From positions 1 to 24,401 of the IMG/VR virus record IMGVR_UViG_2802429219_000006: a stretch of 24,401 nt of DNA; one strand, 5' to 3'. Under the pieces are notes generated by a model, which did no database searches, had not been told where the DNA came from, and saw only the letters and a program-made list of their open reading frames with translations. Shown here piece by piece: positions 2,760-24,294 of the stretch. Positions within the stretch are counted from its first letter, which is position 1; every line of letters starts with the position of its first letter. The translations under genes and the position numbers were made by a program. This stretch comes from a virus (Duplodnaviria; Heunggongvirae; Uroviricota; Caudoviricetes).

Positions 2760-3308
2760 ATGAAATTTAACTCATTAGGGATTTTGATTAGCTCACTGCT
2801 ATTTTCTGGTGTTTCTCATGCAATTGATGTCACAGAGAGAATGAATGACATTCAACAATTTGGTAAATGGTATTATGCTGAGTTTACCATGCCTACCACT
2901 ATGGCTTATCGTATTGGTGTTGAATCCAAATTGCCGCAGGATAAATCAACTTTATTTATTGATATATCACCGTTAACTCAATGTGAGCCCGGTGATGTAA
3001 CTGTCAATCATTTTATTGGATATAAACAAATGGATTTACCACCGTTCCTTCCTGTAAGCTATAAAATCAGTGGACAACAAAAGCAGGACTCTATAACACC
3101 CCCATCTATCAATGAAGGTTACTTGTTCAGTCCTATTAGCTCATTAAAGATTAGTGATTTGTTAAAATCTAAAGGGAAAGGTAGTTTTTCTTTTTGGTAC
3201 ACTCCGCCAACTGAAAGTAAAGAAAAACCACAAAAAATATTCTTCCCATTAGATGGCCTTCCGGAAGCATATAAGGCTGCAATCAATTCCTGTAAAGAAA
3301 ACATGTAA
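2760..3308 (+). CDS. Secreted or periplasmic protein of unknown function (moron gene); predicted Sec signal peptide
   Basis: 182-codon ORF with a strong RBS (AAGAGGA, 8 nt upstream of the ATG). N-terminus MKFNSLGILISSLLFSGVSHA-IDV has a basic n-region, hydrophobic core and SHA cleavage motif; two Cys in the mature part. The DNA is visibly AT-rich against the flanking structural genes, and the gene is on the opposite strand to the tail operon. Confidence 0.7.
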   Translation: MKFNSLGILISSLLFSGVSHAIDVTERMNDIQQFGKWYYAEFTMPTTMAYRIGVESKLPQDKSTLFIDISPLTQCEPGDVTVNHFIGYKQMDLPPFLPVSYKISGQQKQDSITPPSINEGYLFSPISSLKISDLLKSKGKGSFSFWYTPPTESKEKPQKIFFPLDGLPEAYKAAINSCKENM

Positions 3309-3326
3309 AATCAGGCAGTGATATTT

Positions 3327-3815
3327 ATGATGCACGCCTTTCTCGAAGTAGGTAAACGCTTTGCTACTTGGATCACCGAGCGAATCAGCTAGTATGAATT
3401 CGTAGAAAATCAGGACTTTTTGATTATTTCCCAAAATCGGGAAATAATCGATAGAGGCATACCAGCTAAAGACTACCACCTCATCCTGGACCCCGCCAAA
3501 GAACTGGCAATGGTCGAGCGCAACGAAAAAGGCTGCCAGATCCGCCGATACTTCATCGAGTGCGAGAAGAAGCTGCGCGAAGAAACCACCAGCACACAAT
3601 CCCCTCTGAATGTTGACATCATCATGCGCGTCAGAAACGGCTCCGTTACCCACATTGAGCACCACAAATCAGGCTCAGTTATAACCACAGAATGGGCAAT
3701 TCACTTACTACGCAAAAGTGGATGGATTGTCATGCCTCGCGATGAACTTCTTAACACGCCACTGGCCCAACTGATGCCCGAAAGCTTGCCTCAAACCGGA
3801 ACCTGCGTCCGGTAA
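3327..3815 (+). pseudogene. AntA-like antirepressor remnant: 5'-truncated, with an in-frame amber codon at 3390-3392
   Basis: Reading frame ATG(3327) MMHAFLEVGKRFATWITERIS-TAG-YEFVENQDFLIISQNREIIDRGIPAKDYHLILDPAKELAMVERNEKGCQIRRYFIECEKKL... The ORF track only reports the part after the stop (3420-3815, TTG start). The WI..RI..Y.FVENQDF and AKELAMVE...RRYFIECE blocks match my memory of the phage AntA/AntB antirepressor domain; the usual N-terminal part of that domain is missing. Confidence 0.5.
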
Positions 3816-19214: not shown

Positions 19215-20543
19215 TTACAATTCCGCGTAATTACCGTGCGCGATGATCAATCCATAGGTGTAACAATCGAAAAGGTCATCAGCACGTTTATGCGCATCTT
19301 TGTCTGCCAGGTGGAACCCGGCGATTTGTTTTATGAGGTGGTTTGCGGTGGTGCGTTTGAATGAAACGGTCTTGTCGTAAGCCTCCCGGACGATTTTGCA
19401 CATCCCCTGATAGTGGTAGCTGGATGCCATCACCGCCCGTTCGTCTTTGCCCTTGCTGGTTAGTGCCGATTTAATCGGCGTCATATCCCAGCCTTCGGTT
19501 TCCGCCTTCTGGTTGAGAATTGCCCCCATCGCGGCGTCTTCCATAAAAATTCCCTGGCTGCCCAGACGCGGACGGCATAATTTCGCGAGGCGCTCGAGGT
19601 TGTCATAAACGCCGGGGATATATTCAGGAAGCAATGACGCTTTAATTTGCGTCACATCCCAGTCAATAATCGTCAGTTTTGGCTCGTCCGAATACGTTGA
19701 CTCATAAGAGAAATACACCACGCCAGTACCATCATTTTCGGTCCCGCCTTTCAGCGCCGTATCCATCACTGCGAAAATCATGTCGCAGTACAGCGGCATC
19801 TCAATTGGTTGGCCGTCCACCAGCAGCTTATCGACATCGAGTAACGCGTCTTTGGACCAGTCCACGAACTCTGCAAGATATTCCTGCTGCCAGACGCGCG
19901 GATCGGATTTCTTCTCCGTTTCCTCCAGTTCTTCTTTCGGAATATACGGATTCGATGAAGTTGGCGCATGATGCATGACAAATCCCAGGGATTCATCGTG
20001 GCATATCGCGTAGAAAAAATTGCTCTCGTCGATACCGTTTGGTGTGGAAAATACCCACGCACAGCCGCGGTAATCGACAAGCGTCGGGCGTATCGCTCGG
20101 GGCCAGATTTCCTCGAGCATTTCCGGCGATTTAGTGAATGCGGCCTCATCAATCAGCACAGCGTGATATTTACGCCCACGCCCGGCCAGTTTGTTATTGT
20201 CCGTTACCCAAAAGTCGATGCGCCCCCCATTACGGAGAATGATGCGCTTTTCATTTTTTGACTGACTGAGGATCAGCGGTTGCAGAACGGCGCTAATTTC
20301 ATCCCAGATTTCCTGGTACTGGCGGTATTGCGCGGTAAAAATCCCCACCCTACCCGCGATAAGTTGCCCGGTGGTAGGAACGGCAAATTTCCGCGTCGCG
20401 AAACTGGTAGCGATGTTTACCAGCATCACCGTTTTACCCCAGCGACGACCACAGCATACCGCGTGGAAGCGTTCCTCTATTGCCGCCGTCCATGCAGCTA
20501 TTTGCCCCTCATGAGGTTTTGGGAGGTAGATTTCAATCGACAT
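19215..20543 (-). CDS. Terminase large subunit
   Basis: 442-codon ORF with an N-terminal Walker A-like motif (CCGRRWGKT) and a ...VLIDEAAF... Walker B-like segment. Overlaps the small subunit gene end. Confidence 0.85.
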   Translation of the reverse strand: MSIEIYLPKPHEGQIAAWTAAIEERFHAVCCGRRWGKTVMLVNIATSFATRKFAVPTTGQLIAGRVGIFTAQYRQYQEIWDEISAVLQPLILSQSKNEKRIILRNGGRIDFWVTDNNKLAGRGRKYHAVLIDEAAFTKSPEMLEEIWPRAIRPTLVDYRGCAWVFSTPNGIDESNFFYAICHDESLGFVMHHAPTSSNPYIPKEELEETEKKSDPRVWQQEYLAEFVDWSKDALLDVDKLLVDGQPIEMPLYCDMIFAVMDTALKGGTENDGTGVVYFSYESTYSDEPKLTIIDWDVTQIKASLLPEYIPGVYDNLERLAKLCRPRLGSQGIFMEDAAMGAILNQKAETEGWDMTPIKSALTSKGKDERAVMASSYHYQGMCKIVREAYDKTVSFKRTTANHLIKQIAGFHLADKDAHKRADDLFDCYTYGLIIAHGNYAEL

Positions 20544-21672
20544 TATCCACTCCCGGCATCGGCAGAGAGTTGTGGATAATTATTTCGTTATTCTCACCAC
20601 CCACGCCTTTTTTGAGGTTTTCAATCTCAGTGCGCAGCTTTTCGTTGCGAAGCCTCAGTCCTTCAAGCTCCAGATCATTGCGACTGTCAGTTGCACCACC
20701 AGCAGAACTTCCTTTCGTCGCCATTATCAGCTTGATAAGTTCGCGCCGGGCGGCAGCCTTATCCTCCAGCAGGATCTCAACACCAAATTTCCCGAGTTTT
20801 GCCCCTGCATATAATTGTCGCGCATCCCCATCAAGCAGAGTGGTATCAGCCATATAAAGCTGTCCCGTTCCCTCACCGCAGCACTTCGGGCAGTCCGGAT
20901 TGGGTATGGCGTTATCAACAAAGCCAAGGCCTCCATATTCCGGCTCGGGTTTGCCATCTCTGGAGGCCTGTGCCGCTGCCTTATCGAATTCTGCAATATC
21001 ACGCCACTGGTAGAGGTGATTCTCGCCCCAGCAATAACGGCAGTTAACACGGCGAAATTGTGCCAACTGATTGGGGTCGGCCTGGACGATGGCCATCAAC
21101 TGACTCACCAGCAAATCCAGGTCTGCGGTATAGCGTTTCTGGTACTGATTGCGGAAGTAGCTGATAGCGCGAAAAACCTTATCATTTCTTATCAGGCGAC
21201 TGGCATTTGCGTACAACCCCTGACCTAAATCTGAATATCCTGCGTCACGGTAAGCCGTGGCCAGTTTTTTCCCTTGAGCAACCAGCATGGCGAATTTTGC
21301 CTGCTGGTCAGAAATGCCGAATTCATCAGGGGTGAAAGGGATATCAGCATCACTAGGCAACAAGCTGAAGCTGGTATTTTTAGAACCGTTTTTGGATGTC
21401 CGGGCATCGTTACATCCCGAACTTTTTTGCTCTTTTCCTGACTGCGAATTCGCGATTTTTTTGGGGTCTTTTTTTCGCGATTTTTTTCCCGAATTCGCGA
21501 TTTTTCCTCCACTTCCTGAAAGGAGAGCTTTAGCAGCCTTTATCGTGATATGGTTTTTCGCAGTTCCCCATGAATGGCCTTCTCTGTCACTCCACTCTTT
21601 AGGCTTTATTCCCGTCTGTCGCCATTCGTTTGCAAACCGGGATAATTCCTCACCCCAGTTCGTCCTGGCCAT
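20533..21672 (-). CDS. Terminase small subunit with extended N-terminal region
   Basis: 379-codon ORF with an AGGAGG Shine-Dalgarno. Central block ...AYRDAGYSDLGQGLYANASRLIRNDKVFRAI... matches the AGYS...A.RL..N..V..AI pattern I recall for small terminase subunits. It is directly upstream of the large subunit gene. Confidence 0.7.
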   Translation of the reverse strand: MARTNWGEELSRFANEWRQTGIKPKEWSDREGHSWGTAKNHITIKAAKALLSGSGGKIANSGKKSRKKDPKKIANSQSGKEQKSSGCNDARTSKNGSKNTSFSLLPSDADIPFTPDEFGISDQQAKFAMLVAQGKKLATAYRDAGYSDLGQGLYANASRLIRNDKVFRAISYFRNQYQKRYTADLDLLVSQLMAIVQADPNQLAQFRRVNCRYCWGENHLYQWRDIAEFDKAAAQASRDGKPEPEYGGLGFVDNAIPNPDCPKCCGEGTGQLYMADTTLLDGDARQLYAGAKLGKFGVEILLEDKAAARRELIKLIMATKGSSAGGATDSRNDLELEGLRLRNEKLRTEIENLKKGVGGENNEIIIHNSLPMPGVDNVD

Positions 21673-21829: not shown

Positions 21830-22009
21830 CTAACCATCCTGATGTTGTTGTGATTTCGCATTAACTAAGTCAATGAAGTCCAGGCACATTTCAAGACGAT
21901 GACCATGATCATCGACAAAGTTATAACGCCGAAATATATCAATAATTTCATTGGGACTTTTCCCCGCAATATGAGGATATTGTTTTGATTCGTAATTATG
22001 TTTCATCAT
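21830..22009 (-). CDS. Small hypothetical protein (59 aa)
   Basis: ORF 21830-22042 in the track. The internal ATG-ATG at 22009 has a GGAGA Shine-Dalgarno 4-5 nt upstream. Product MMKHNYESKQYPHIAGKSPNEIIDIFRRYNFVDDHGHRLEMCLDFIDLVNAK... looks protein-like. Confidence 0.4.
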   Translation of the reverse strand: MMKHNYESKQYPHIAGKSPNEIIDIFRRYNFVDDHGHRLEMCLDFIDLVNAKSQQHQDG

Positions 22010-22197
22010 CAAATCTCCAGTCAGTTGGGTATGATTCAGCAACTCTCACACTGGAAATAGCCTTTCACAATGGAGGTATCTATCAATACTCTGGTGTTCC
22101 ATCCAGGATCTATCAGGGTCTTATGAATGCCAGTTCAAAAGGCCAGTATTTTCACCAATTCATTAAAAATGTGTATCCATACCGTAAGGTAGGCTAA
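21985..22197 (+). CDS. KTSC-domain small protein
   Basis: 70-codon ORF with a TTG start. ...VSSSNLQSVGYDSATLTLEIAFHNGGIYQYSGVPSRIYQGLMNASSKGQYFHQFIKNVYPY matches the KTSC-domain consensus as I remember it. Confidence 0.6.
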   Translation: MIRNYVSSSNLQSVGYDSATLTLEIAFHNGGIYQYSGVPSRIYQGLMNASSKGQYFHQFIKNVYPYRKVG

Positions 22198-22323
22198 CCT
22201 TCAGTGGGGGAGAAGAGCATCCCCCACATTCATATATCAACCAGATTAGATAACAGAATTTCATGCTTCCTAGACAATGGCGCCCCTTCATTTTTCAGCG
22301 AAATATTCTGCTCTTACGGGCGA

Positions 22324-22506
22324 TCAGTTCTGCAGACACTGCCGGACACTATCAACAATTTCGCAGACCTGAGAAGCTGTATCGAAAAGCTGGCGCGCCT
22401 TATCTAGGCTGACGCACCCCACCAATAAAAAAGGCACCAGTATCGCTACCAGTGCCCATTTTGCCGCCGCTCGCGGCATTCTGTGTGTCCAGTGTTTTCG
22501 GCTCAT
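22324..22506 (-). CDS. Small putative lipoprotein
   Basis: 60-codon ORF. N-terminus has basic residues, a hydrophobic stretch and an LLVGC lipobox; the mature part would be about 29 aa with two further Cys. Its ATG lies 1 nt after the stop of the upstream 37-codon ORF. Confidence 0.45.
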   Translation of the reverse strand: MSRKHWTHRMPRAAAKWALVAILVPFLLVGCVSLDKARQLFDTASQVCEIVDSVRQCLQN

Positions 22507-22507
22507 A

Positions 22508-22621
22508 TCACCACCAACGCACAGCCCAAATCAGAACAGCGACCGCCACAAGGCGAATTGCAAAGGCCGCAGCCCTTGTCAAATCAAGGCTCGCGGGAGT
22601 TTCCACTTCAATACCTTTCAT
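22508..22621 (-). CDS. Small transmembrane peptide (37 aa), not in the ORF track
   Basis: My own translation of the minus strand: ATG at 22621, MKGIEVETPASLDLTRAAAFAIRLVAVAVLIWAVRWW, stop TGA then T then the ATG of the lipoprotein ORF. GAGG Shine-Dalgarno-like element upstream. Confidence 0.35.
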   Translation of the reverse strand: MKGIEVETPASLDLTRAAAFAIRLVAVAVLIWAVRWW

Positions 22622-22712
22622 AATGGACAACCTCAAAAAGAATCTTTTATACTTTCCCACGAGGATTTTCTCCGTACTCACTACTCACAATTTCCTCTTT
22701 GACGTGAAAACT

Positions 22713-22747
22713 AAAAACCCCGGACTGTTCCAGCAGCCGGGGTTTTT
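22713..22747. terminator. Bidirectional intrinsic terminator
   Basis: AAAAACCCCGG-actgttccagcag-CCGGGGTTTTT: an 11-bp stem flanked by an A-tract and a T-tract, so it gives a hairpin plus U-run on both strands. Located just downstream of the endolysin gene. Confidence 0.6.
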
Positions 22748-22840: not shown

Positions 22841-23386
22841 TTAAACTGCTACGCGCTCTTTCATCCAGCCGTAGACAAACGACTCGTTGGCCTCGCGTTT
22901 TTCTGCCAGCTCCAGATAGCGGTCGCCCTGCGTGCAATTCAGCGCCTTCAGCATCACCAGTTCGCCGTCTTTGCCGCGTTTTTGCAGATAAGTCCGTAGT
23001 GCATTAATCGTGCGGGGGCCGATACGCCCGTCTGCGTCCATATCCGGGAACAATTTGCCTTGCAGGTTGAAAACGTTCAGCCAGCGTTGGAGCATTTTCG
23101 ATGCTACGGACGGCCCCATATTCACACCGGTATCACACAACTCTGCAGCAATATCAGAGGATAATGCGGCCACCTGATCAAAGCGTGGTCCGAACCAGTA
23201 ATCCGCCTCAAGGATTTCCAGCGCCTGTTCGCGTGTCAGGTCACGCATATCGCCCTGATATCCGTGAGCGCGGGCGACTTTTTCCGTAATACCCCATTTT
23301 GTCGGTCCGCCTTTATCATCCGGGTGATTGACGTAACCGCCCTCTTTTCCCAGAACTTCGTCAAAAATTTCATCTTTCGACTTCAT
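22841..23386 (-). CDS. Endolysin, GH108-type lysozyme with peptidoglycan-binding C-terminal domain
   Basis: ORF 22841-23407 in the track. I prefer the ATG at 23386 (MKSKDEIFDEVLGKEGGYVNHPDDKGGPTKWGIT...), the typical GH108 N-terminal motif; the downstream ...ADGRIGPRTINAL... resembles a PG-binding domain. The start is 1 nt after the upstream membrane protein's stop. Confidence 0.8.
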   Translation of the reverse strand: MKSKDEIFDEVLGKEGGYVNHPDDKGGPTKWGITEKVARAHGYQGDMRDLTREQALEILEADYWFGPRFDQVAALSSDIAAELCDTGVNMGPSVASKMLQRWLNVFNLQGKLFPDMDADGRIGPRTINALRTYLQKRGKDGELVMLKALNCTQGDRYLELAEKREANESFVYGWMKERVAV

Positions 23387-23387
23387 A

Positions 23388-23681
23388 TCAGCGCCTTCGT
23401 AATACAAAGATTTTTGAAACGTTCCCGCGTGCGCGAATCACCAACACGCAGAACAGCAGATTAAGCCCCACCGCCAGCCAGTTCGCCGCTAACGGGCGAC
23501 CGCACAGATAGCTGAGGGGCGCAAAGGCATAAAGCAGCATCAGCAGCCAGGCCAGCCATGACATCAGCGGTTTATGTCTGGAATCACGGCGACGATAAAA
23601 AAAGAGCGTCAGCACGATAACCGTGCATAACGCCACATTCAGCAATCCGGGAAGGTTACTTAACATTATCGCCTCCTCCAC
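23388..23681 (-). CDS. Membrane protein with about 3 predicted TM helices (holin or antiholin candidate)
   Basis: 97-codon ORF directly upstream of the endolysin. Hydrophobic segments LPGLLNVALCTVIVLTLFFY, LMSWLAWLLMLLYAFAPLSYL and LAANWLAVGLNLLFCVLVI; basic C-terminus. Confidence 0.5.
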   Translation of the reverse strand: MEEAIMLSNLPGLLNVALCTVIVLTLFFYRRRDSRHKPLMSWLAWLLMLLYAFAPLSYLCGRPLAANWLAVGLNLLFCVLVIRARGNVSKIFVLRRR

Positions 23682-24048
23682 TCTTCAGGCGGGAGAGCAG
23701 ACAGGACATCAGTGATATAACGTCCTGCCTGTGCACAAAGGACAGCACTTTTACCGACAATACAGACACCAGCACTGCACACAATGCGTCAACAGGTGCA
23801 CCATCAAACTCTGTATGCTTTACCAGCCAGGATGCCAGAACCTCTGCGCCCAGCACGCCGATAATGAACGACACCAGAAAATGCGCTGCCACACGCCAGG
23901 CTGAAAGCGCCTGCGGAATTGTTGCCACAAATAACGCCCCGGCGAACGCACCAAACACAATCCCGAAATCCGTTCCGGTAAACAGCCCGTACACCGTCGC
24001 CCCGCCGAGCGCCGCAGCCGTACCGGAACCGGATAAGGGTTCAGACAT
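23656..24048 (-). CDS. Membrane protein (holin candidate)
   Basis: 130-codon ORF with an AGGAGA Shine-Dalgarno and several hydrophobic segments (e.g. FGIVFGAFAGALFVATIPQAL, FLVSFIIGVLGAEVLASWLV). First gene of the lysis cluster. Confidence 0.5.
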   Translation of the reverse strand: MSEPLSGSGTAAALGGATVYGLFTGTDFGIVFGAFAGALFVATIPQALSAWRVAAHFLVSFIIGVLGAEVLASWLVKHTEFDGAPVDALCAVLVSVLSVKVLSFVHRQDVISLMSCLLSRLKSGGGDNVK

Positions 24049-24065: not shown

Positions 24066-24095
24066 ATAAAAAAGGGCCACCAGCGGCCCGTAAAA
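24066..24095 (-). terminator. Short GC hairpin flanked by T-tracts on the minus strand, immediately upstream of the holin-candidate RBS
   Basis: Plus strand AAAAAAGGGCC-accagc-GGCCCGTAAAAAAA. On the minus strand the 5-bp GC stem is followed by TTTTTTATTTATA and then AGGAGA and the ATG. Confidence 0.4.
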
Positions 24096-24141: not shown

Positions 24142-24294
24142 TTATTCAGATTTATGCAGTAAAGGCCGGAGCACAACCAGCGCCATCGCCACCAGCACAC
24201 CATCTGCCAGCACCGACATCAGCCGTCCGGTGAAATCCACCACCACTACCAGAAACAGCAGGATGGCAGCCAGTACAAGGCGCGCACTTTTCAC
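24142..24294 (-). CDS. Possible small hydrophobic peptide (50 aa, GTG start)
   Basis: My own translation: VKSARLVLAAILLFLVVVVDFTGRLMSVLADGVLVAMALVVLRPLLHKSE. Its GTG overlaps the stop of the partial upstream gene. Not in the ORF track. It may instead be untranslated leader. Confidence 0.25.
   Translation of the reverse strand: MKSARLVLAAILLFLVVVVDFTGRLMSVLADGVLVAMALVVLRPLLHKSE

Follow-up and report, generated by a model that had tools for sequence, protein, structure and literature searches.

Of all the steps of phage lysis, outer-membrane disruption is the least understood. To our knowledge, the only established outer-membrane disruptors are the spanins, which may be two-component or unimolecular, and one cationic peptide, the disruptin. 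The disruptin, gp28 of phage phiKT, is reportedly a single small amphipathic peptide that disrupts the outer membrane in a phage devoid of spanins, and is said to be cationic, non-lipidated and antimicrobial-peptide-like. The colicin lysis or bacteriocin release proteins are very small lipoproteins (about 28-35 residues when mature) whose expression alone permeabilises the envelope.

In a census of spanins, i- and o-spanin genes are embedded, overlapped or close together, and 91 of 677 phages (13%) have no identified spanin (Kongari et al. 2018, BMC Bioinformatics 19:326). One of its computational listings is a gene of phage phiP27 (NC_003356, 20706-20861), the only member of its family, which is classed as an o-spanin of separated architecture with 30 periplasmic residues and 83% predicted helix; its assigned partner is a 64-aa ORF starting at TTG (20348-20542), and the two together constitute the shortest catalogued spanin, at 62 periplasmic residues (Kongari et al. 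2018). The single product T1 gp11 has a C-terminal inner-membrane TM anchor and a beta-rich periplasmic domain (PMC6139136), and Lcc6 of LambdaSo (65 aa) is a very small TM protein, encoded in or near the lysis cassette, that is required for lysis and acts at the holin step (bioRxiv 10.1101/2024.01.23.576932).

The locus described here lies in a viral sequence of 24,401 nucleotides, the whole of which we refer to as the window. Its lysis cassette is encoded on the minus strand and comprises, in the direction of reading:

23656..24048, minus strand: holin-family protein, Phage_holin_8 (Pfam E 7.9e-22)
23388..23681, minus strand: holin-family protein with three TM segments, Phage_holin_3_7 (Pfam E 3.5e-21)
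22841..23407, minus strand: endolysin, GH108 plus PG_binding_3 (E 1.8e-26 and 1.3e-25), given as the longest ORF
22707..22742, minus strand: intrinsic-terminator-like hairpin with U-tract in the interval between endolysin and peptide (-24.7 kcal/mol, z = -3.7)
22622..22654, minus strand: leader of the peptide gene, nearly invariant and non-coding, with the Shine-Dalgarno motif GAGG; AAGTATAAAAGATTCTTTTTGAGGTTGTCCATT
22508..22621, minus strand: 37-aa membrane peptide ("pre-spanin" peptide), ATG at 22621 and stop at 22508 (phrog_4493, E 7e-16); MKGIEVETPASLDLTRAAAFAIRLVAVAVLIWAVRWW
22423..22457, minus strand: terminator-like hairpin within the lipoprotein's signal-peptide coding region, with an 11-bp stem, a GCGA loop and U6AUU (-21.4 kcal/mol, z -3.4)
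22324..22506, minus strand: lipoprotein precursor of 60 aa (phrog_7528, E 2.7e-37, function unknown), a member of the family of the phiP27 "o-spanin"

The preliminary description of this DNA had recognized an endolysin with two membrane proteins, a terminator behind the endolysin, and then a 37-aa peptide ending in its TM helix and joined TGA-T-ATG to a 60-aa lipoprotein with an LLVGC lipobox and a Cys-containing, proline-free 29-aa tail. This layout stands in every part: Pfam assigns the endolysin to GH108 and both membrane proteins to holin families, and the post-endolysin terminator has the form CCCCGG...CCGGGG followed by U5AGU4. In the E. coli A41 prophage, which is 98.5% identical, PGAP starts the identical endolysin gene at MKSKDEI, giving 181 aa. 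The same description had found no recognizable spanin, and indeed there is no Rz/Rz1-type gene within the window; the homologue in phiP27, however, had already been catalogued as an o-spanin. The two lipoproteins are 92% identical over 60 aa and alike in lipobox and Cys pattern.

The lipoprotein gene encodes a signal peptide (codons 1-30), a Cys31 that is predicted to be lipidated, and a 29-residue tail predicted to be an amphipathic helix. By a rule-based call (not SignalP), the n-region holds five Lys/Arg residues, the h-region WALVAILVPFL has a mean Kyte-Doolittle value of 2.56, and the lipobox is LLVG/C31; it is the sole lipobox ORF found in a six-frame scan of the 24.4-kb window. Sorting to the outer membrane is predicted because the +2 residue is Val and not Asp. 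The mature part, 30 aa including Cys31, contains no Pro but has Cys48 and Cys57; there is no second hydrophobic segment after Cys31, and the C-terminal end reads VRQCLQN. AlphaFold2 models the protein as one long helix at low confidence (pLDDT 68; about 60-67 in the mature part), and this model together with hydrophobic-moment analysis indicates that the mature helix is amphipathic. Its net charge ranges from -4 to +3 across the family.

Searches of Pfam (E <= 0.1), NCBIfam and PADLOC gave no match to the lipoprotein. In Pfam and PHROGs it matches neither the Rz1 spanin families nor the Bor or Cor families, its only PHROG match being phrog_7528, and there is no match to Pfam Lysis_col at E <= 0.1. 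A PDB profile search returned nothing meaningful, and an exhaustive profile search of 1.84 billion representatives yielded only 23 matches, all of them similar small lipoproteins or fragments. PGAP frequently leaves the ORF uncalled, and database names in both the lipoprotein and the peptide family are limited to "hypothetical", "lipoprotein" or "putative transmembrane protein".

Both ORFs are real coding genes: pN/pS is 0.24 in the lipoprotein gene and 0.10 in the peptide gene, whereas other frames score about 1 or more (0.97 and 1.88 in the other two frames of the lipoprotein gene). In the peptide gene, 27 of the 41 variable sites are third codon positions. The lipobox is invariant in three family alignments (A1, A3 and A4), and Cys31, Cys48 and Cys57 are invariant across all lipoprotein subfamilies; the lipobox and the C-x16-C-x8-C pattern are kept in relatives in which both the signal peptide and the mature part have diverged. 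The preliminary description would have been refuted by a canonical spanin elsewhere in the phage together with ORFs that are not conserved or not translated; in the A41 prophage, the annotation from int to gpJ includes no Rz/Rz1, and both ORFs are under purifying selection.

A reading in which the conserved element is the RNA hairpin and the lipoprotein ORF is incidental would fit the hairpin block being the most conserved stretch of nucleotides in the gene, as well as the ORF's frequent omission by PGAP, but its probability is close to nil: outside the hairpin, the mature part shows a pN/pS of 0.20, ORF length and Cys pattern persist at 45-60% identity, and the relatives P0163 and P0173 retain the lipobox despite a different signal-peptide sequence.

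The hairpin is nevertheless a distinct feature of this gene. It is near-invariant in 32 distinct alleles, its synonymous sites are constrained (20 of 90 changed, versus 33 of 48 in the mature part), and it is also kept in distant relatives. An intragenic terminator-like hairpin of this kind might hold lipoprotein expression very low. Its position over the signal-peptide codons represents compact dual coding, and could account for the insulation of a potentially toxic late gene in the lysogen.

We next consider the i-spanin that the census assigns to this family. Among about 314 loci, the 64-aa ORF occurs in phiP27 alone, and it has no counterpart in the window; in phiP27 it runs antisense to a 90-aa ORF whose protein sequence is conserved in another locus of the collection (L050). 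Neither of the two genes listed in the census is annotated correctly in the GenBank record of phiP27. The 64-aa partner of the census o-spanin is, in our view, doubtful. More generally, no i-spanin-like ORF (an N-terminal TM segment followed by a periplasmic coiled coil) was found in the window, in 86 related loci, in distant relatives or between int and gpJ of the A41 prophage. The preliminary description had considered the lipoprotein too small for an o-spanin; this objection falls away, as a 60-aa precursor fits and the mature part of lambda Rz1 is 40 aa (PMC6139136). The lipoprotein has the lipobox Cys, the outer-membrane sorting signal and the periplasmic cysteines expected of an o-spanin, but its gene neither embeds in, overlaps nor adjoins that of a cognate i-spanin.

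The loci were gathered by searching for the lipoprotein and the peptide, with flanks of 2.5-4 kb on each side. Counted per locus, with repeat copies of the same contigs included, 260 carry the lipoprotein without Rz/Rz1, 45 carry the peptide with Rz/Rz1 but lack the lipoprotein, and nine, all of the GER2 lineage, have Rz/Rz1 together with a lipoprotein copy interrupted by three in-frame stops. An intact lipoprotein gene was never found together with Rz/Rz1; the single lineage with both carries the pseudogene, in which the hairpin is still present. The co-occurrence of pseudogene and Rz represents one evolutionary event. The lipoprotein gene is found behind three unrelated types of endolysin (M15, GH108 and CHAP-like) and is always accompanied by holin-family membrane proteins. 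From this distribution, the lipoprotein occupies the slot that Rz/Rz1 has in other lambdoid phages. We infer that it may also fill the function of Rz/Rz1, although the lack of Rz/Rz1 does not in itself prove such a replacement, because 13% of the phages in the census are likewise without a spanin.

The family is widespread in E. coli: the window's locus has matches in 341 of 5,426 complete genomes, and the family includes Stx2e and Stx2k phages. A scan of a genome-contig collection gave only three loci, because that collection is limited to a single genome for each species. Among 279 Stx phages surveyed elsewhere, Rz was reported in 277 and an endolysin of the M15 metallopeptidase family in two (PMC8136144); the two phages without Rz and the two with M15 are presumably the same.

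The peptide upstream of the lipoprotein has a different distribution. Its first 17 residues are hydrophilic, its TM helix contains an invariant internal Arg, and it ends in RWW; the best 17-residue Kyte-Doolittle window covers residues 18-34 (2.45), which brings the helix almost to the C-terminus. In the window, the junction with the lipoprotein gene reads TGG TGG TGA T ATG, with one base between stop and start, and a TGA-[T/C]-ATG junction follows the peptide in 68 of 68 distinct contexts. In every locus examined, this UGA-N-AUG arrangement links the peptide to one of two lysis genes, Rz or the lipoprotein. In other prophages the peptide stands before full-length lambda-type Rz/Rz1, with the same kind of junction, the same leader and an upstream hairpin; the hairpin at the post-endolysin position of these Rz-type loci differs in sequence. 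The leader itself is near-identical between lipoprotein-type and Rz-type loci, while the adjacent coding sequence differs at most third positions (alignment A6). The peptide is found on more than a thousand contigs and is a conserved lysis-cassette gene under strong purifying selection, but only about 31 of 84 lipoprotein loci carry it. The proposal that peptide and lipoprotein form a pair in the spanin slot thus survives in part: the position is exact and the lipoprotein is a conserved member of the cassette, but the pair is not obligate, and the peptide is a separate, optional module. No match to the peptide was obtained in PADLOC, Pfam or NCBIfam, and literature searches found neither a paper on its accession nor experimental work on phiP27-type lysis.

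A longer, 57-aa form of the peptide starting at GTG was also considered, and the PHROG profiles do extend over such a form; diverged paralogues of the peptide share a KYK..LRL motif. We reject the longer form because a coding signature is missing from its 20 upstream codons (pN/pS 0.60, versus 0.85-1.0 in control frames), a 5-nt indel between lineages interrupts the longer ORF upstream of the leader, and the last 33 nt before the ATG are invariant in the manner of a leader. A candidate sigma-70 promoter of the peptide's own (TATAAA, 27 nt upstream of the ATG) was likewise discarded, there being no conserved -35 element in either lineage; a promoter scan on the peptide's strand found nothing.

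The explanation that we favor, and to which we would give about an even chance, is that the 60-aa lipoprotein is an outer-membrane lysis protein that works without an i-spanin and forms the end of the phiP27-type cassette, with the peptide as a separate accessory. What the analysis establishes is that the genes are real, to which families they belong, where they lie, with what they co-occur, and that the RNA hairpins exist; the localization, the disulfides, the lytic role and the role of the peptide are inferred. On this reading, the lipoprotein would be made solely from Q-antiterminated late transcripts; it would receive its lipid at Cys31, and the Lol pathway would carry it to the inner leaflet of the outer membrane. 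After the endolysin has cleared away the peptidoglycan, the lipoprotein's amphipathic helix of 29 residues, probably linked by disulfides at Cys48 and Cys57, would destabilize the outer membrane. The protein would be spanin-like in position and role yet unable to span the periplasm. The mechanism would have to differ from the membrane fusion of spanins, because a tail of 29 residues, about 4 nm long when helical, falls short of the inner membrane. The peptide would be a small protein of the inner membrane. Termination-reinitiation at UGA-N-AUG would couple its translation to that of Rz/Rz1 or the lipoprotein, and as an accessory factor it might modulate the last lysis step or the expression of the downstream gene.

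The lipoprotein could alternatively be one half of a two-component spanin whose non-Rz-like partner has escaped recognition, such as a holin-family protein of the cassette, a host envelope protein, or the product of a gene beyond the flanks. The classification of the phiP27 homologue points in this direction, as does the constant company of holin-family proteins, and the two conserved cysteines toward the C-terminus are reminiscent of the Cys pair that is essential in T4 PseT.2 (PMC6139136). We nonetheless consider this unlikely: the holins that accompany the lipoprotein come in at least three different sets (130+97 aa, 132+95 aa, and a single protein of 117 aa), the only i-spanin so far proposed is not conserved, and within 2.5-4 kb none of the loci has an ORF that combines an N-terminal TM segment with a periplasmic domain, whereas the i- and o-spanin genes of the census lie embedded, overlapped or close together.

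It is likewise unlikely that the lipoprotein is an envelope moron, resembling Bor, Cor or T5 Llp and acting in conversion or superinfection exclusion, in phages that lyse with no outer-membrane disruptor. Spanin-less phages do exist in the census, the lipoprotein neighborhood is a hot spot of inserted accessory genes, and a small outer-membrane lipoprotein with conserved cysteines would suit such a role. The Bor/Cor-like possibility raised in the preliminary description is disfavored, however, by the arrangement of the gene, which in 47 of 86 loci shares the strand of the endolysin gene and begins 7-18 nt behind it, so that no space is left for a promoter of its own; nor was a sigma-70-like promoter found upstream in the window. 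The gene does not look like an autonomous transcription unit of the kind expected of a moron, and the terminator-like hairpin in its 5' coding region would block transcripts that are not antiterminated. Moreover, the lipoprotein gene has decayed precisely in the lineage that carries Rz/Rz1, and Bor and Cor profiles do not detect the protein.

A miniature two-component spanin, with the peptide as degenerate i-spanin and the lipoprotein as o-spanin, is very improbable and largely refuted by distribution. An inner-membrane protein followed by an outer-membrane lipoprotein does mimic Rz/Rz1, and both in the window and in 46 distinct contexts the two genes stand next to each other with coupled translation. 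But the peptide is not an i-spanin, because it is missing from about 63% of lipoprotein loci and elsewhere precedes a complete, canonical Rz/Rz1 (at least 19 distinct contexts), which also disposes of the earlier suggestion that it is a degenerate one. Its topology is wrong as well, with the TM helix at the C-terminus, three residues before the stop, and only RWW beyond it; the tail of 29 residues and at most 17 from the peptide add up to 46 periplasmic residues, compared to 62 in the shortest spanin of the census.

A membrane-active toxin/modulator pair or addiction-type module outside lysis, also suggested earlier, has an even slighter chance: small hydrophobic peptides are common among type I toxins and two terminator-like hairpins flank the peptide, but neither an antisense RNA nor a promoter signature turned up, PADLOC, Pfam and NCBIfam gave no match, and in every locus examined the peptide is joined to a lysis gene.

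If the lipoprotein acts alone, it would be a minimal and easily testable outer-membrane disruptor, and the only published classification of its family, as the shortest two-component spanin, would have to be corrected. A more far-reaching version of the favored explanation is possible, but we hold it only tentatively: in P27-type lambdoid phages, a lone amphipathic helix of 30 residues, lipid-anchored and disulfide-bonded, would breach the outer membrane with no inner-membrane partner, constituting a third class beside spanins and disruptin; its gene would be silenced outside Q-antitermination by the terminator in its own signal-peptide codons, and the peptide would be an unrecognized component common to both types of cassette in thousands of enterobacterial prophages.

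Among the systems described, the lipoprotein resembles lambda Rz1 and other o-spanins in having a precursor of about 60 aa, a place at the end of the cassette, conserved periplasmic cysteine(s) and the same coupled peptide upstream, and in related cassettes it is mutually exclusive with Rz/Rz1. It differs from them in having no i-spanin gene, in being free of Pro and predicted to be helical instead of disordered, and in being unable to span the periplasm. Like T1 gp11, which acts at the last step of lysis, it is a single product with an N-terminal lipoprotein signal, but it ends in a soluble QN and lacks the C-terminal second anchor of a unimolecular spanin. The 37-aa peptide and Lcc6 are both small single-TM proteins with no sequence relationship to each other, and the gene of the peptide is coupled to that in the spanin slot. 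In contrast to disruptin, the lipoprotein family is predicted to be lipid-anchored, and its mature charge of -4 to +3 indicates that it is not a cationic membrane-active peptide of that kind. Finally, although bacteriocin release proteins have no Cys pair and no sequence similarity to the lipoprotein, they share with it the type of lipobox, the size and the predicted lipidation.

The lysis-region genes of the window all lie on the minus strand, and the preliminary description of the peptide-lipoprotein locus was accurate: the ORFs, their junction, the terminator and the lipobox are all present.

Features of the lysis region
23656-24048 (-), Phage_holin_8 protein, first in transcription order
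23388-23681 (-), Phage_holin_3_7 protein, second in transcription order
22841-23407 (-), endolysin with GH108/PG_binding_3 domain matches
22707-22742 (-), strong hairpin and U-tract (-24.7 kcal/mol, z -3.7), between endolysin and peptide leader
33 nt directly 5' of the peptide ORF (-), leader with GAGG
22621-22508 (-), peptide ORF, 37 aa, 3' of the leader
22506-22324 (-), lipoprotein ORF, 60 aa, one base from the peptide ORF
22423-22457 (-), terminator-like hairpin within the lipoprotein signal-peptide codons (11-bp stem, GCGA loop, U6AUU)

The first 17 residues of the peptide are hydrophilic; its TM segment is AAFAIRLVAVAVLIWAV, and RWW stands at the C-terminal end. The lipoprotein has a signal peptide with a long basic n-region, the h-region WALVAILVPFL and a lipobox of LLVG followed by Cys, with Val at +2; no other ORF with a lipobox occurs in the 24.4 kb scanned, whatever the frame. 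Its mature tail comprises 29 residues, without proline but with Cys48 and Cys57, and is predicted to form an amphipathic helix. Upstream of the holins, a 50-aa ORF (24142-24294, -) with two hydrophobic segments recurs in 20 related loci. A terminator-like site, GGGCCGCTGGTGGCCC plus a T-run (24074-24089, -), lies 3' of this ORF and just ahead of the first holin gene, and may be a late-operon terminator overridden by Q.

On the other side, 3' of the lipoprotein gene, are an opposite-strand KTSC-domain gene, a 70-aa ORF and the genes for the small and large terminase subunits. The KTSC-domain gene (21985-22197, +; PF13619, E 5e-28) runs antisense within the late operon, in the stretch that separates the lysis cassette from terS, and resembles a moron in reverse orientation; a GC-rich hairpin (GTGGGGGA...TCCCCCAC, 22203-22230) follows it. 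The 5' end of the 70-aa ORF (21830-22042, -), which matches phrog_18255 (E 3e-38) of unknown function, extends into the start of the KTSC gene on the opposite strand. The terS gene (20533-21672, -) encodes an unusually long small terminase subunit of 379 aa; the motif GAATTCGCGATTTTT / CGCGATTTTTTT, repeated at ~21440-21510, encodes a Lys-rich low-complexity stretch in its N-terminal third.

We compared the position of the lipoprotein gene across 80 IMG/VR loci, together with loci from phages and genomes. Of 86 loci, 47 place it 7-18 nt 3' of the endolysin gene; the others have a gap of 250-975 nt that holds assorted insertions, among them the module of terminator and peptide, a 93-aa ORF, HNH-like and Ant-like genes and, in phage phiP27, a reverse-oriented two-gene unit. 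The gap is a hot spot for insertions (in the related loci L001, L019, L036, L050, L055, L056, L084 and others) with contents that vary by locus, such as the 93-aa ORF, the HNH-like gene (163 aa), the Ant/KilA-like gene (186 aa) and, in some loci, additional small TM peptides that are paralogues (44 and 67 aa). One further locus (L236) carries an IS3-family element within the lysozyme gene. Distant lipoprotein relatives (58-68% identity) occupy the same cassette position, downstream of an M15, GH108 or CHAP-like endolysin and with three different holin sets.

An ORF combining an N-terminal TM domain with a periplasmic coiled coil was found in none of the loci examined, and no Rz/Rz1 is annotated from int to gpJ in the 98.5%-identical prophage of E. 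coli A41, which bears out the preliminary description on the lack of a recognisable Rz/Rz1-type spanin. A survey of 279 Stx phages reported Rz in 277 and an endolysin of the M15 metallopeptidase family in two (PMC8136144); the two phages without Rz are presumably the two with the M15 family.

The lipoprotein family is already known, having been catalogued computationally as an o-spanin. The window locus is 90-94% identical over parts to phages phiP27 and phiSTEC1575-Stx2k, and phiP27 was entered as a "separated" two-component spanin by Kongari et al. 2018 (PMC6139136), with a 51-aa o-spanin at 20706-20861 (30 residues in the periplasm, 83% helix) and a 64-aa i-spanin at 20348-20542 (32 residues in the periplasm). 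Each is a singleton family in that census, and the pair is quoted as the shortest known spanin system, with 62 periplasmic residues together (PMC6139136). The census o-spanin is a Met-12 start of the phiP27 homologue of the lipoprotein, across which the GenBank record (NC_003356) annotates a wrong-frame 51-aa ORF (L32). The census i-spanin is a TTG-start ORF, which we consider spurious because it occurs in phiP27 alone among ~314 loci and lies (phiP27 locus, 3171-3365, +) antisense to a 90-aa ORF (3155-3427, -) that is conserved as a protein in locus L050 (46% identity). The spanin census yielded a homologue listed as an o-spanin, and not the i-spanin partner that defines one. Such a listing would suit a lipoprotein with an unrecognised inner-membrane partner, a reading that we regard as unlikely.

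The lipoprotein and Rz/Rz1 largely exclude each other. Counting all loci collected, with the same contigs sometimes counted repeatedly, 260 have the lipoprotein and lack Rz/Rz1, 45 have the peptide and Rz/Rz1 and lack the lipoprotein, and nine, all of one lineage resembling phage GER2, have Rz/Rz1 and a lipoprotein copy. In all nine (GER2 itself, L313 4297-4482, and L235, L240, L245, L251, L253, L255, L264 and L286) this copy is interrupted by three in-frame stops, identical in every case, and its start is disrupted as well; it lies ~1.2 kb downstream of the canonical Rz/Rz1 and peptide and retains a remnant of the ...GGTGATATG junction. Decay beside Rz/Rz1 is the pattern that functional redundancy would predict, here as a single evolutionary event in a sample driven by two query proteins. 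The interpretation in the preliminary description is partly supported: its spanin slot is correct, its Bor/Cor-type moron is not supported, and we judge an envelope moron rather improbable. Word-indexed and exhaustive profile searches turned up nothing beyond a small family confined to enterobacteria (Escherichia, Salmonella, Citrobacter, Cronobacter, Yersinia, Lelliottia); the exhaustive search, run over 1.84 billion cluster representatives, gave 23 matches at E <= 1e-3. Every full-length member is the precursor of a small lipoprotein, in most cases of 54-71 aa, and three cysteines are invariant: that of the lipobox, one 16 residues on and one a further 8-9 residues on; the remaining mature sequence falls to <50% identity and ranges in net charge from -4 to +3.

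The peptide is present in ~31 of 84 lipoprotein loci. In loci gathered by peptide search, its stop is always followed by an ATG through a TGA-[T/C] junction, and this ATG starts a P27-type lipoprotein in 46 distinct contexts and a full-length lambda-type Rz with embedded Rz1 in at least 19 (e.g. phage GER2). The upstream hairpin and leader move together with the peptide. Since Rz and the lipoprotein follow it alike, the peptide appears to be a "pre-spanin" module, translationally coupled to whichever gene fills the spanin slot, and its coupling therefore marks the lipoprotein as a slot occupant. The adjoining ORFs had suggested a spanin pair, but the peptide is missing from most lipoprotein loci and also precedes complete Rz/Rz1, and a two-ORF mini-spanin is accordingly very improbable; a toxin/modulator pair is more doubtful still.

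Both ORFs are genes. Among 72 distinct lipoprotein-gene alleles from related loci, pN/pS comes to 0.24 overall and 0.20 for the mature part, vs 0.97 and 1.88 in the remaining two frames; among 16 peptide-gene alleles it is 0.10, and third codon positions account for 27 of 41 variable sites. The ORFs are thus conserved under purifying selection, and an ORF merely incidental around a terminator is scarcely credible. The 20 codons 5' of the peptide ATG carry no coding signal (pN/pS 0.60 vs 0.85-1.0), and lipoprotein-type and Rz-type loci align there with a 5-nt indel followed by a nearly invariant 33-nt stretch up to the ATG, indicating that the product is the 37-aa form and the stretch a leader with a ribosome-binding site. 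Neither protein matched Pfam, NCBIfam or PADLOC; PHROG assigns the peptide to phrog_4493 and the lipoprotein to phrog_7528, both of unknown function, and the names given in databases are throughout "hypothetical", "lipoprotein" or "putative transmembrane protein". In the A41 genome (NZ_CP028735, L003/L312), PGAP calls the peptide and not the 100%-identical lipoprotein.

The hairpin in the signal-peptide codons (-21.4 kcal/mol, z -3.4) is nearly invariant across 32 distinct alleles, with pairing kept by most stem changes; distant relatives retain it, as does the GER2 pseudogene. Where six distant relatives have an identical amino acid, the codon differs at only 20 of 90 positions in the hairpin block, vs 33 of 48 in the mature part; close alleles have a pS of 0.10 in the block vs 0.20-0.24 elsewhere. 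Such conserved codon usage makes nucleotide-level selection, or repeated recombination, likely. The hairpin could plausibly ensure that the lipoprotein and the packaging genes downstream of it are expressed only under Q antitermination, and insulate them from upstream accessory-gene transcription in the lysogen.

With roughly even confidence, we favor an outer-membrane lysis factor that acts without an i-spanin, accompanied by an independent pre-spanin peptide. The analysis itself demonstrates that both ORFs are genes, as well as the lipoprotein features, the position, distribution and exclusivity, and the hairpins; the functional steps are inferred from these. Such a lipoprotein would be expressed late, sorted to the outer membrane by Lol and oxidised by the Dsb system, and would act on the outer membrane once the peptidoglycan is degraded. 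O-spanins are defined by their i-spanin partner, whereas none was found for this lipoprotein, although its family is catalogued among them. Spanins fuse membranes across the periplasm; a 29-residue tail (~4 nm as a helix) falls short of the inner membrane, which excludes periplasm-spanning fusion of the spanin type for this lipoprotein and would leave local destabilisation of the outer membrane or recruitment of a host factor.
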